A stretch of DNA of 64,000 nucleotides, from contig CAZVYN010000005.1 of assembly GCA_964631125.1 (NCBI GenBank), forward strand, positions 34,230 to 98,229, given 5' to 3'. Position 1 is the stretch's first letter. Every line of letters starts with the position of its first letter. This document shows, in pieces, positions 62,153 through 63,641 of this stretch. The notes beneath the pieces are model-generated. The model was not told the origin of the DNA. It did not search any database and was given only the letters and a program-made list of their open reading frames with translations. This stretch comes from an uncultured bacterium. GTDB taxonomy: Bacteria > Eisenbacteria > RBG-16-71-46 > CAIMUX01. The position numbers were made by a program, and so were the translations under genes.

Positions 62153-62413
62153 CATGACCAGTGACGCGAAGCCAGGTCTACCCGAGTGGCAGCAGTATCC
62201 AACCCTCGGAGAGCTCCTGGTCGATCCCGATCGGTACCGGGATTTGCGTCGGCGCTGCCACCAGAGCTGCGAACAACTCGATCGCCTCTCCCGCGAGGGC
62301 ACCCCGGAGGAACGTCAGTTGGCCGTCCAGTCGCTCGAGGCGTACGGACGGGCCCTGCAGTTTCTCGAAGAGGTTCTGAAGGTGCGCGACGAGGCCGTAC
62401 AGAACCGCGGTTA
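62153..62413 (+). CDS. Small helical-hairpin protein (SctE/YscE-like co-chaperone candidate)
   Basis: 86 aa with two predicted helices and a strong AGGAGG RBS upstream. It lies immediately 5' of the needle-family gene, as in yscE-yscF-yscG. Assignment by size and synteny only. Confidence 0.4.
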
Positions 62414-62442
62414 GCCCCGCGGACGAAGAGGAGCAACTATCC

Positions 62443-62748
62443 ATGAGCGGCATCGGAAACATCGCCAACAACTTCGACTTCCGCACCCTCTCGCAACCGA
62501 TCACGGTCGAGAAGGAAGGCGGCTGGAAGAAGTTCGGACGCATCCTCGGGGGAGTCGCCTCTGCCGCCGCCCCGTTCACCGGCGGCGTGTTGAACGGCGC
62601 CGGAGTCGACTCGAACTTCAATCGCCAACTCGAGCTGATCCAACTGCAGGAGCAGATCCAACAGCAGACTCAGATCATCAACACCGTCTCGAACGTCTCG
62701 AAGAGCAAGCACGAGGCGGCCATGGCGGCGATCCGGAACATGAAGTAG
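62443..62748 (+). CDS. Type III secretion needle/inner-rod family protein (SctF/SctI-like)
   Basis: 101 aa. The C-terminal 19 aa (SNVSKSKHEAAMAAIRNMK) align position-for-position with the MxiH/PrgI tail SNTVKVIKDVDAAIIQNFR: S-N at 1-2, K at 5, acidic residue at 9, AAI and N near the end, basic last residue. A Gln-rich helix precedes it. Size fits PrgJ/YscI or an extended needle subunit. Confidence 0.5.
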   Translation: MSGIGNIANNFDFRTLSQPITVEKEGGWKKFGRILGGVASAAAPFTGGVLNGAGVDSNFNRQLELIQLQEQIQQQTQIINTVSNVSKSKHEAAMAAIRNMK

Positions 62749-62750
62749 AG

Positions 62751-63164
62751 GTGCAGATGAGTCGACCGAGCCTGCCGGTGACGGTGAGCCCCGAGGAGAA
62801 GCGGTTCCTCATGGAGTGCGCGTTCGCGCTGCGCGACGCGCGCCGCGAGGAGGAATCGGCCGCGGTCTTCCGCGGCGTGCTGCCCTTGGTCGATGACAAG
62901 CATCTGCCGCTCATTGGTCTGGGCACCATCGAGTTCTTCGGCGGTCGTTTCGACGCCGCCATCGAACAGTTCGAAGAGGCGACACGCATGGCCCCGACCT
63001 TCGCGCTCGGCTACGCGCACCTCGGCGAAGCGCTCGCCTTCGCGCGTCAACAGGAAGAAGCCGAGTTGGCGTTGCGCAAGGCCTCCGACTTGGACCCCGT
63101 CGGCGCCGAGGGCGGCGAGATGGCCCGCACACTCCAGAAGTTTCTCGCCTACGGGCTGCTCTAG
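62751..63164 (+). CDS. TPR-like T3SS chaperone candidate (SycD/LcrH class II or YscG class III type)
   Basis: 137 aa with 3 TPR-like motifs (LIGLGTIEFFGGRFDAAIEQFEEATRMAPTFALGYAHLGEALAFARQQEEAELALRKASDLDP). It starts 3 nt after the needle-family gene. Confidence 0.45.
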   Translation: MQMSRPSLPVTVSPEEKRFLMECAFALRDARREEESAAVFRGVLPLVDDKHLPLIGLGTIEFFGGRFDAAIEQFEEATRMAPTFALGYAHLGEALAFARQQEEAELALRKASDLDPVGAEGGEMARTLQKFLAYGLL

Positions 63165-63206
63165 TTACATCTCGGGCCAGGTCTCGAGAGGGAGAGGACG
63201 GTCACG

Positions 63207-63641
63207 ATGAAGATCCCATCCGGCGGCGACGACTTCCGCATTCCGTCCCAGCCTCCGAGTGAACCGAGCAAGCCCGCGGGCGCCACTTCGGGCGGCCCGG
63301 CCGAAGCCGCACGGCGAGCGGAGTTCGAGAAGTCACTCTCGGGGACGGGCGCTGCGTCTGGCGCCGCCGGCGCCTCCGGCGTATCGCCGGCCGCGTCCCC
63401 CCGCACCGACGGTCCACAGGCCGCCAAGTTGCGCGAGATGCTCCAAGGCGTCGACCGCCACGCGCCCGACGCCCAGGAAAAGGTGGCCGACGCCCTCGTC
63501 GAGTGGACCCTGACCGAACGCTTCGGCGAAGGGATCATGAAGAAGACCGGCATCATCGGACTGCGCGCCTCCGTCCAGCAGCAGATCCTCGAAGACCCGA
63601 CGATGGAGCGGAAGATCAAGCAGATCTTGGAGCAGATGTAA
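63207..63641 (+). CDS. Hypothetical protein, possible fourth member of the needle module
   Basis: 144 aa. Disordered Ala/Gly/Ser/Pro-rich N-terminal half and a helical C-terminal half (IIGLRASVQQQILEDPTMERKIKQILEQM). Co-oriented and closely spaced with the preceding three genes. Confidence 0.4.
   Translation: MKIPSGGDDFRIPSQPPSEPSKPAGATSGGPAEAARRAEFEKSLSGTGAASGAAGASGVSPAASPRTDGPQAAKLREMLQGVDRHAPDAQEKVADALVEWTLTERFGEGIMKKTGIIGLRASVQQQILEDPTMERKIKQILEQM

Follow-up and report, generated by a model that had tools for sequence, protein, structure and literature searches.

A conserved four-gene cassette in Candidatus Eisenbacteria that probably encodes a needle-class subunit and chaperone set of a dispersed type III secretion system

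Four small genes lie one behind the other near the right-hand end of a 64,000-nucleotide stretch of contig CAZVYN010000005.1 from an uncultured bacterium; this whole stretch is referred to here as the window. An earlier note, made from the sequence alone, took the four genes for an orphan needle module of a T3SS (type III secretion system) in a Gemmatimonadota/Myxococcota-like host. Here, we have analysed the products of this cassette, which we call the E, F-like, G and H proteins, together with the rest of the contig and related loci. The closest homologs make Candidatus Eisenbacteria the most likely host instead, and the named close relatives that bear the cassette are all Candidatus Eisenbacteria metagenome-assembled genomes (MAGs); the placement is judged from identities of 51-64% in the F-like protein and 71% in SctN.

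RESULTS

The cassette is a real and conserved gene unit

The open reading frames (ORFs) bear out the description of four small co-directional genes on the forward strand, the first of which starts at 62154, one nucleotide off from the 62153 that had been claimed (Table 1). Gene callers choose the ATG at 62757 over the GTG at 62751 as the start of the G gene, and the spacers within the cassette are 28, 2 (or 8) and 42 nt. Shine-Dalgarno-like sequences precede the starts, and the GC content at third codon positions (GC3) of the four genes is 0.75-0.88. The order E-F-G-H is kept in at least five other lineages at 35-67% identity. Since the four genes are conserved in the same order across these lineages, they are real and not chance ORFs, and we conclude that the cassette is a conserved gene unit. 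All four genes are predicted by gene callers in L007, L019-L021 and L022 (L-numbers denote fetched loci), and were recovered by tblastn in L023, L024 and L025; L024 is a MAG of the same lineage as the Logan loci L019-L021, and L008 is grouped with L007. A promoter scan returned no promoters, and terminator counts were no higher than those of shuffled sequences.

Two long antisense ORFs with high GC3, at 62178-62621 and 63161-63856 on the reverse strand, overlap the cassette, and the gene caller of one assembly (L003) picked an antisense ORF in place of the 86-aa gene. We rejected both as true genes because conservation tracks the proteins of the forward strand.

Table 1. Positions of the cassette, of the T3SS genes on the same contig and of the genes before the cassette. 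Coordinates refer to the window unless NODE_244 or L088 is named; L088 is ERZ505514 NODE_244 108188-120367
Feature	Position	Strand	Length	Remarks
E protein gene	62154-62414	+	86 aa	predicted helical
F-like protein gene	62443-62748	+	101 aa	
G (TPR) protein gene	62757-63164	+	135 aa	from ATG; 137 aa from GTG at 62751
H protein gene	63207-63641	+	144 aa	
K-like gene	NODE_244 ~108.2-109.3 kb	cassette strand		homolog of the gene after sctJ; 31% identity, E = 2e-34 to L080
Inserted AAA_14/DUF4143 gene	NODE_244, L088 1273-2475			between K-like gene and sctL
sctL (FliH)	NODE_244 110.7-111.4 kb	cassette strand	232 aa	
Inserted RND efflux operon	NODE_244, L088 3782-9691			between sctL and sctN
sctN	NODE_244 118.2-119.5 kb	cassette strand	445 aa	PF18269 T3SS_ATPase_C; 71% identity to Eisenbacteria SctN
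sctO (YscO-like)	NODE_244 119.5-120.0 kb	cassette strand	167 aa	
FHA protein gene	59014-60027	+	337 aa	tail-anchored; two FHA domains; C-terminal transmembrane helix
PEGA Ser/Thr kinase gene	60041-62083	+	680 aa	transmembrane segment; extracytoplasmic PEGA domains

The F-like protein has remote kinship to needle subunits

The F-like protein consists of a variable N-terminus, a short helix (residues 27-42), a Gly-rich loop and a 45-residue C-terminal helix (residues 56-100). The AlphaFold model built on a deep alignment gives the C-terminal helix a pLDDT of 88-96 and is less sure of the short helix (pLDDT ~60); a model built on 9 sequences only is uncertain (pLDDT 54). Among 5.8 billion proteins, there are only 9 close clusters of the F-like protein. 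In these close relatives the final 40 residues are almost invariant and the proteins end in ...SNxSKSKHEAAMxAIRNMK; this invariant C-terminal motif, KSKHEAAMAAIRNMK, marks the family as separate from the PF09392 needles. An exhaustive profile search extends the family to 594 representatives at E <= 1e-3, which carry no annotation. In these proteins of ~100 aa, the N-terminus varies and the middle is rich in Gly, and the conserved C-terminal helix follows the pattern LQxxxQxxxQxFxxxSNIxKxxHExxMxAIRNxR.

The earlier note had matched the last 19 residues of the F-like protein to the C-terminal helix of needle subunits. That match amounts to 6/19 identities plus 3 conservative pairs, which is modest when taken alone, and it becomes significant at the level of family profiles. 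PF09392 is the commonest Pfam match within the F-like family (13 of 139 members, best E = 5.7e-4). For profile comparison we used a canonical needle set of seven sequences, each confirmed at 58-101 bits on PF09392. The alignment of the F-like family with these needles by hhalign scores 27.0 (P = 2.9e-4) over 44 columns and pairs residues 57-100 of the window's protein with residues 36-79 of PrgI, staying in register as far as the C-terminus. When the columns of the needle alignment were shuffled (n=200), the scores against the F-like profile were 10.4±2.0 with a maximum of 17.7, so that the observed score lies ~8 standard deviations above them. The reversed needle alignment scored 11.5, four unrelated families scored 8-10, and a local set of SctI-like proteins scored 21.9 over 25 columns. 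Best matches to the flagellar rod, which the earlier note held would speak against a needle, were not found, as FliE (13.4) and FlgC (11.7) score near background, and a flagellar identity of the F-like protein was dropped on this ground.

The same relationship is recovered in both directions by profile hidden Markov models (HMMs). With an HMM of the seven needles, the top 12 matches among the 11,207 six-frame ORFs of all fetched loci are F-like genes, the window's included, and no canonical needle gene was found among these ORFs. Reciprocally, an HMM of the F-like family matches all seven needles with per-sequence E values of 2e-7 to 2e-4. In the PDB, the F-like family profile matches a 43-residue C-terminal peptide of an EscF/SsaG-like needle (7y6c, E = 0.07), while its first-ranked raw match is a Q-rich nucleoporin; PDB searches with the single sequence or a small family gave nothing, or a non-significant match to the C-terminus of FlgF (E = 0.55). 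Foldseek of the better model against the PDB returned no match, as expected for one long helix. Taken together, the profile comparisons point to a kinship with SctF needles that is real but remote and runs through the C-terminal helix.

A side observation concerns P0114, a metagenomic protein of 870 aa. This long acidic protein repeats the F-like C-terminal motif in tandem, in three or more copies, one of which, ISNILKNLDDVDQAIINNMK, is nearer to MxiH/PrgI than the F-like protein of the window is.

The partner proteins G, E and H

The G protein is a canonical TPR protein with three or more repeats, and TPR_2, TPR_8 and TPR_11 are above the Pfam cutoffs. Eight members of its family were compared with NCBIfam, where LcrH_SycD is matched by 8/8 (best E = 8e-12), CdsG by 7/8 (best E = 8e-7), SctY by 5/8 and YscG by 2/8 (best E = 1.4e-4). 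The window's G protein itself reaches 17.8 bits (E = 0.002) on TIGR02552 (SycD/LcrH), under the equivalog cutoff of 104.8 bits, and neither YscG (TIGR02508) nor CdsG (NF052304) is among its own NCBIfam matches. Thus the earlier assignment to the SycD/LcrH-YscG type holds in so far as T3SS chaperones are the top NCBIfam matches of the family, and fails in that every one of these matches stays below its curated cutoff. The TPR gene lies directly 3' of the F-like gene in every lineage seen. We regard the G protein as a candidate chaperone of the F-like protein, one that would work like a T3SS chaperone but is not classifiable as one.

The E protein is 39-51% identical among Eisenbacteria cassettes and 19-25% identical to the gene that follows sctV in Acidobacteria, and its family carries an invariant P..W motif. 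It had been proposed to be a YscE protein. We could not uphold this: only 1/8 family members matches PF08988, at 12.9 bits (E = 0.14) against a gathering threshold of 22 bits. By hhalign, the E family is at background against needles and SctI. A co-chaperone role in the place of YscE/CdsE is argued from size, helicity and position, which makes the E protein a candidate for it.

The H protein has a conserved N-terminus (MKIPxxGDxFRIP), a disordered middle rich in Ala, Gly and Ser, and a conserved helical C-terminal domain of ~65 aa. It is 35-47% identical in five other lineages and restricted to Eisenbacteria-type cassettes. No relative of the H family was found in Pfam, NCBIfam or the PDB, and hhalign against the SctI-like, needle and F-like families gave background scores (8.5 for the SctI-like set). 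The proposal that it is a YscI protein is not supported, on these grounds and because a separate SctI-like gene precedes sctJ in related systems; the H protein is possibly a secreted substrate or a regulator.

Since no curated T3SS threshold is reached by the cassette proteins, they cannot be filed in any T3SS family.

T3SS genes lie downstream on the window's own contig

That the 64 kb hold no core T3SS genes was borne out by tblastn with 26 T3SS core and accessory proteins, which found no match in the window or up to 10 kb past it. Apart from the cassette, the window is core chromosome with a protein that joins Ser/Thr kinase (STK), NB-ARC and TPR domains and with surface proteins. Housekeeping or signalling functions account for its ten largest ORFs (IleRS, GyrA, GyrB, YidC, transketolase, G6PD and similar), and the window has no secretin.

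The word "orphan", on the other hand, does not survive. The window is part of a longer contig (ERZ505514 NODE_244) on which the cassette lies at 85.2 kb and the window ends at ~86.7 kb. Downstream of the cassette by 22-33 kb, this contig carries a K-like gene, sctL, sctN and the YscO-like gene sctO, all on the strand of the cassette itself (Table 1). Because of these genes the cassette is not an orphan, and its apparent isolation is an effect of the window's edge. All assemblies stop ~0.5 kb past sctO, in a Pro/Ala-Ser triplet repeat at the beginning of an ORF that occupies the position of SctP, the ruler (L088 11845-12180). JGI metagenomes were scanned with an SctJ alignment, and none of the contigs found came from the window's samples.

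Cassettes and T3SS operons in other Eisenbacteria

The genes before the cassette were compared among the relatives. In the lineage of L019-L021 and the MAG L024, the order is FHA, STK/PEGA, CsgG, cassette, and in L022 it is FHA, STK/PEGA, cassette. L023 has Cys-rich secreted proteins ahead of the cassette; L025 has a partial kinase-like ORF, a CsgG-like ORF (by sequence similarity only), Cys-rich proteins and then the cassette; and in L007/L008 a divergent AsmA gene precedes it. A kinase adjoins the cassette in three of the four Eisenbacteria-type lineages. 

In L007 and L025, the cassette is 4-8 kb upstream of an operon for a sigma factor, an SctI-like protein, SctJ, a protein of 300-360 aa and SctL. 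The Eisenbacteria SctJ is ~260 aa long and matches PF01514, and in the relatives SctN ends the operon, of which L025 shows the N-terminus of SctN only. The locus L080 carries one contiguous cluster, sigma, I, J, K, L, N, O, P, Q, FliO, R, S, T, U, and so joins the partial pictures obtained from Eisenbacteria (I-J-K-L-N) and Acidobacteria (P-Q-R-S-T-U). L013 and L084 have a T3SS operon with no cassette within 10 kb. T3SS genes are present in every cassette-bearing genome that could be checked, namely the window's, L007, L025, L024 and those of Acidobacteria.

Two further genes were observed at these loci. A CsgG-family lipoprotein gene lies between the kinase and the cassette in L019 (2219-3328), L020 (7929-9038) and L024 (8306-9514); the CsgG assignment is by PF03783 in L019-L021, whereas the ORF at L025 4796-5944 has a similar C-terminus only, and CsgG is absent from the window. 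An ORF at L025 15808-16551 on the reverse strand, between the sigma factor and the SctI-like gene, is MotA/TolQ/ExbB-like as judged by its N-terminal sequence.

Distant homologs in Acidobacteria lie next to sctV

A genome scan found distant F-like homologs in Silvibacterium bohemicum, Edaphobacter modestus and an Edaphobacter MAG, with 38% identity over the C-terminal helix. The Acidobacteria genes run SctP-like, FHA::SctQ, FliO-like, SctR, SctS, SctT, SctU and a 140-aa gene, and then SctY/LcrH-like TPR, an 84-aa gene, SctV, E-like (100 aa), F-like (195 aa), TPR (139 aa) and FHA-TM (151 aa; TM, transmembrane). The F-like gene is thus separated from sctV by one small gene, whose 100-aa product aligns with the window's E protein, and the 139-aa TPR protein aligns with the window's G protein. 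The SctV of Acidobacteria reaches 777 bits on the hrcV equivalog, above its cutoff of 692, and stays below the FlhA cutoff, and SctR passes yscR and fails fliP. A flagellar reading of the cluster was rejected, as SctV and SctR meet injectisome cutoffs only and there are no rod or hook genes.

Several smaller features of the Acidobacteria cluster were seen. In Silvibacterium, the FHA domain is at the N-terminus of the FHA::SctQ fusion (L028 844-2313), and the FHA-TM gene (L028 10606-11061) encodes a short tail-anchored FHA protein with no periplasmic domain; proteins of this kind are found with the cassette in Eisenbacteria and Acidobacteria alike, where they could act as a minimal SctD-like element in a system with no visible secretin. 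Kinase-like and PP2C-like ORFs, read from their sequences alone, are found near the cluster. A second small Gly-rich protein of 84-99 aa is encoded just before sctV (L028 6673-6927, L029 6613-6912). By hhalign it matches the C-terminal helix of the F-like family weakly (19.6), and it may be a paralogous axial protein.

The FHA protein and the kinase before the cassette

The earlier note had drawn attention to the FHA and kinase genes next to the cassette, and their relevance is borne out, since both are conserved partners of the cassette in relatives. The FHA protein of the window matches PF00498 (FHA, E = 8e-25) and PF16697 (Yop-YscD_cpl, 56.6 bits); its top likeness is to TagH of the type VI secretion system (T6SS), at 96.7 bits and under the cutoff. 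It has no periplasmic domain, and could possibly be a phospho-threonine reader or a minimal SctD-like element. The kinase matches Pkinase (E = 5e-32) and PEGA (E = 1e-18) and is a probable sensor or regulator of the cassette. On the other side, the next gene 3' of the cassette encodes a beta-carbonic anhydrase (PF00484).

DISCUSSION

Here, we have shown that the four genes form a conserved unit, that the F-like protein resembles needles remotely but specifically and in register, that the TPR protein leans towards T3SS chaperones, and that T3SS genes are physically linked to the unit, both in relatives and on the contig of the window itself. It is the gene context that settles the tie to type III secretion, by way of the loci of Eisenbacteria, those of Acidobacteria and the contiguous cluster of L080. 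The cassette probably encodes a needle-class subunit with its chaperone set, belonging to a dispersed, non-proteobacterial T3SS in which the FHA protein and the kinase are the probable regulators. The claim of the earlier note that the module is needle-like and undescribed thereby keeps fair odds, as an argument from remote homology and gene context.

How the cassette proteins could work together is suggested by the better-known systems, where YscG/YscE, PscG/PscE and CdsG/CdsE keep their needle subunits monomeric before export. The F-like protein would be a highly divergent SctF-like subunit and an early substrate of the T3SS. The TPR protein, probably with the 86-aa E protein, would keep it monomeric in the cytoplasm before export, and after export its C-terminal helix could drive the assembly of an axial structure atop the export gate and the SctI rod. 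The FHA protein and the PEGA kinase could form a phospho-threonine switch that couples a signal from the envelope or surface to production or export of the subunit, and the H protein could be an extra, lineage-specific substrate or regulator. Phospho-threonine signalling is a plausible regulator because the cassette has tail-anchored FHA proteins as companions in both phyla and, in Silvibacterium, an FHA domain is fused to SctQ. Secretion, polymerisation, chaperone binding and kinase control are what we infer from these likenesses.

Whether the F-like protein would take the place of the needle or of the rod is suggested by the gene directly upstream of sctJ. In Eisenbacteria-type systems, its product ends in ...QSVEILSKTVEQxxSGMKTIFQTNV, a C-terminus in the style of SctI, and the protein in this position in L015 matches the SctI model PF17001 with E = 4e-6, below the cutoff. 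Because the pre-sctJ gene fills the rod role and the loci hold no other needle candidate, a needle-class role is favoured for the F-like protein.

We would like to point out that a number of observations weigh against a needle module. The F-like protein of the window has no match in Pfam or NCBIfam, misses PF09392 even at E <= 10 and falls short of its gathering threshold of 29.4 bits, so that the check proposed in the earlier note failed and only the remote kinship to SctF stands; the hhalign probability of the match to needles is only 41%. Its turn is a Gly-rich loop of 15-25 residues with one invariant proline (P44) and not a tight P-x-x-P, and its N-terminal helix is a short hydrophobic one whose prediction carries low confidence. 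The best match of the canonical TPR family is the translocator chaperone class LcrH/SycD, not YscG, and the E family profile finds no YscE/PscE/AscE-type chain in the PDB, which leaves YscE homology unsupported. The tight linkage of the cassette in three of the four Eisenbacteria-type lineages is to the FHA-kinase pair, and in the L019-L021/L024 lineage to CsgG too, rather than to T3SS genes. Lastly, sctJ, sctV, sctRSTU and a secretin were not seen in the window's genome, where the contig ends after sctO and the 12.7 kb before the K-like gene are unread; sctJ is expected to lie in these 12.7 kb.

Some of these observations would fit a different part of the same machine. The F-like protein could be another axial or distal component, such as an EspA-like filament, a tip protein or a mini-translocator (SctA class), kept by a class II TPR chaperone of the LcrH/SycD type and a small LcrG/CesA-like partner. 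C-terminal helices like that of the needle occur in EspA and tip proteins too, and in Yersinia the gene order is sctV-lcrR-lcrG-lcrV-lcrH, which a cassette after sctV would mirror. The LcrH_SycD match is the strongest of the G family, being found in all eight members; the trio lies directly after sctV in Acidobacteria, where the F-like homolog is EspA-sized at 195 aa; and the F-like protein has a Gly-rich, hydrophobic central segment. However, a length of ~100 aa is far below that of a tip protein or translocator, the profile keeps register with the helix of the needle right down to the C-terminal end, the loci have no other needle candidate, and the G family also matches CdsG and YscG. A distal component is rather unlikely in our view.

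It could also be argued that the cassette does not serve a T3SS at all, but is a module under kinase and FHA control, for example a fibre of the envelope or surface that leaves through CsgG or some other route, that descended or was co-opted from a T3SS. Such a module would account for the tight linkage to FHA and Ser/Thr kinase genes in three lineages with a CsgG-like lipoprotein inserted in L019-L021/L024, for the distance of 22 kb to the nearest T3SS gene on the window's contig, for the T3SS operons of L013 and L084 that have no cassette nearby, and for a lineage-specific H protein with no relative in the libraries. Yet all the checkable cassette-bearing genomes have T3SS genes, these genes are dispersed there anyway, and FHA is integral to the related T3SS cluster, as a fusion to SctQ and as the FHA-TM gene inside the Acidobacteria locus. 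We consider a module outside type III secretion unlikely.

A third alternative gives the F-like protein the role of inner rod or adaptor (SctI class). It draws on the resemblance of the protein to PrgJ and YscI, which are ~100 aa long with a disordered N-terminus and a single long C-terminal helix, and on the hhalign score with the local SctI-like set, which has P = 2.6e-3 and compares with 11.1±2.2 for shuffles. As a distinct SctI-like gene is already present directly upstream of sctJ, and the needle match is both stronger and longer (27.0 over 44 columns versus 21.9 over 25), we judge a rod improbable. Convergence or composition, that is, an unrelated helical family with a Q/N-rich amphipathic helix, is very improbable: although the window's protein fails PF09392, the top raw PDB match is a nucleoporin, Foldseek is empty and the alignment is confined to the C-terminal helix, the observed score is reached by 0/200 column shuffles, the reversed alignment and the unrelated helical families stay at background, the ranking among 11,207 ORFs is reciprocal, and the genomic linkage to sctV and to sctI-J-K-L-N is independent of the alignment.

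The F-like protein differs from the SctF needles (PF09392: PrgI, MxiH, YscF, PscF, EscF, SsaG) in its middle, where a long Gly-rich loop with one proline replaces the PxxP turn of the needles. It resembles them in size (70-90 aa for needles, ~100 aa for the F-like protein), in a conserved C-terminal helix that extends up to the final residues and has the common spacing N..SN..K..(D/E)...A.I.N.(K/R), and in a gene that stands beside a TPR gene and, in relatives, inside or near T3SS clusters. The order of a small helical, a needle-like and a TPR protein of similar sizes is that of the YscE-F-G, PscE-F-G and CdsE-F-G trios. Unlike in those trios, the TPR protein of the cassette is canonical and best on LcrH/SycD, the E protein shows no YscE homology, and a fourth conserved gene (H) follows.

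Among distal structures, the EspA filament is served by the chaperone CesA/CesAB, and the genes of LcrG, LcrV and LcrH lie downstream of sctV. The cassette would be like these in that a small helical chaperone keeps a polymerising or distal protein of the T3SS, and it has a TPR gene close by and, in Acidobacteria, a position after sctV; the window's F-like protein is half the size of EspA. Control of secretion by FHA proteins and kinases is known from Fha1-PpkA-PppA of the Pseudomonas aeruginosa T6SS and from CdsD of Chlamydia, an FHA protein phosphorylated by PknD. As in these systems, genes for an FHA protein and a transmembrane Ser/Thr kinase lie beside secretion genes. In contrast to these systems, the FHA protein of the window is tail-anchored, carries a pair of FHA domains and lacks the periplasmic domain of SctD, and the kinase bears PEGA domains.

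A parallel on the side of the core machinery is in the Myxococcales. Their non-flagellar T3SS (NF-T3SS), termed T3SS*, was described as lacking the secretin, SctF, tip and translocon, and in 2012 NF-T3SS were recorded only from Chlamydiae, Proteobacteria and Verrucomicrobia (Abby and Rocha 2012, PMC3459982). In the same work, the first NF-T3SS was inferred to have had an SctF-based structure that was lost in the basal Myxococcales branch (Abby and Rocha, PMC3459982). The Myxococcales T3SS is still called needle-less in reviews (PMC10849154). The systems discussed here share with it a non-flagellar T3SS outside the classical pathogen families, a retained FliO-like gene, an SctJ of the Eisenbacteria type that is 36-44% identical to that of Myxococcales, and the lack of a secretin and a canonical SctF in the Eisenbacteria and Acidobacteria stretches seen. 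They differ in that Eisenbacteria and Acidobacteria have a needle-like family and were not listed as carriers in 2012. It is conceivable, and we put this forward tentatively, that the F-like family is the overlooked needle or axial subunit of basal NF-T3SS, in Eisenbacteria, in Acidobacteria and, if it is present there, in the Myxococcales T3SS*.

In the literature that we could search, no paper joins Eisenbacteria with type III secretion, no needle candidate has been described for such systems, and there is no account of the cassette. The F-like family is a concrete candidate for the missing axial subunit of the basal relatives of injectisomes. NF-T3SS with accessory genes are extended to phyla that are not discussed in the searchable T3SS literature, and FHA/kinase control is suggested as a recurrent trait of the T3SS of Eisenbacteria and Acidobacteria. 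Several hundred clusters of "hypothetical protein" would gain a name. If the proposal is true, systems called needle-less would build an SctF-type axial structure with a canonical TPR chaperone and gating by FHA and Ser/Thr kinase, and the needle of the ancestral NF-T3SS would be directly recoverable. Since Edaphobacter modestus DSM 18101 and Silvibacterium bohemicum S15 are cultured, the needle question can be tested by experiment.

Other genes at the loci

Cys-rich secreted repeat proteins with the C-terminal motif W-G-x-[IV]-K-x-x-Y-R are encoded in the window (56483-57673, reverse strand) and in L023 (176-1447 and 1523-2944, reverse strand), L025 (6048-10065, reverse strand, three genes) and L013 (5661-7127, forward strand). 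In several lineages of Eisenbacteria they are direct neighbours of the cassette or of the T3SS operon; the motif could be a tag for sorting at the C-terminus, or else the proteins could be cargo. The STK protein of the window mentioned above (51714-54911, forward strand; 1065 aa) combines its kinase part with NB-ARC (STAND NTPase) and TPR domains, and a gene of 339 aa on the opposite strand is next to it. In L084, genes of 1014 and 339 aa, a pair similar to that of the window by a comparison of size only, lie beside the T3SS operon.

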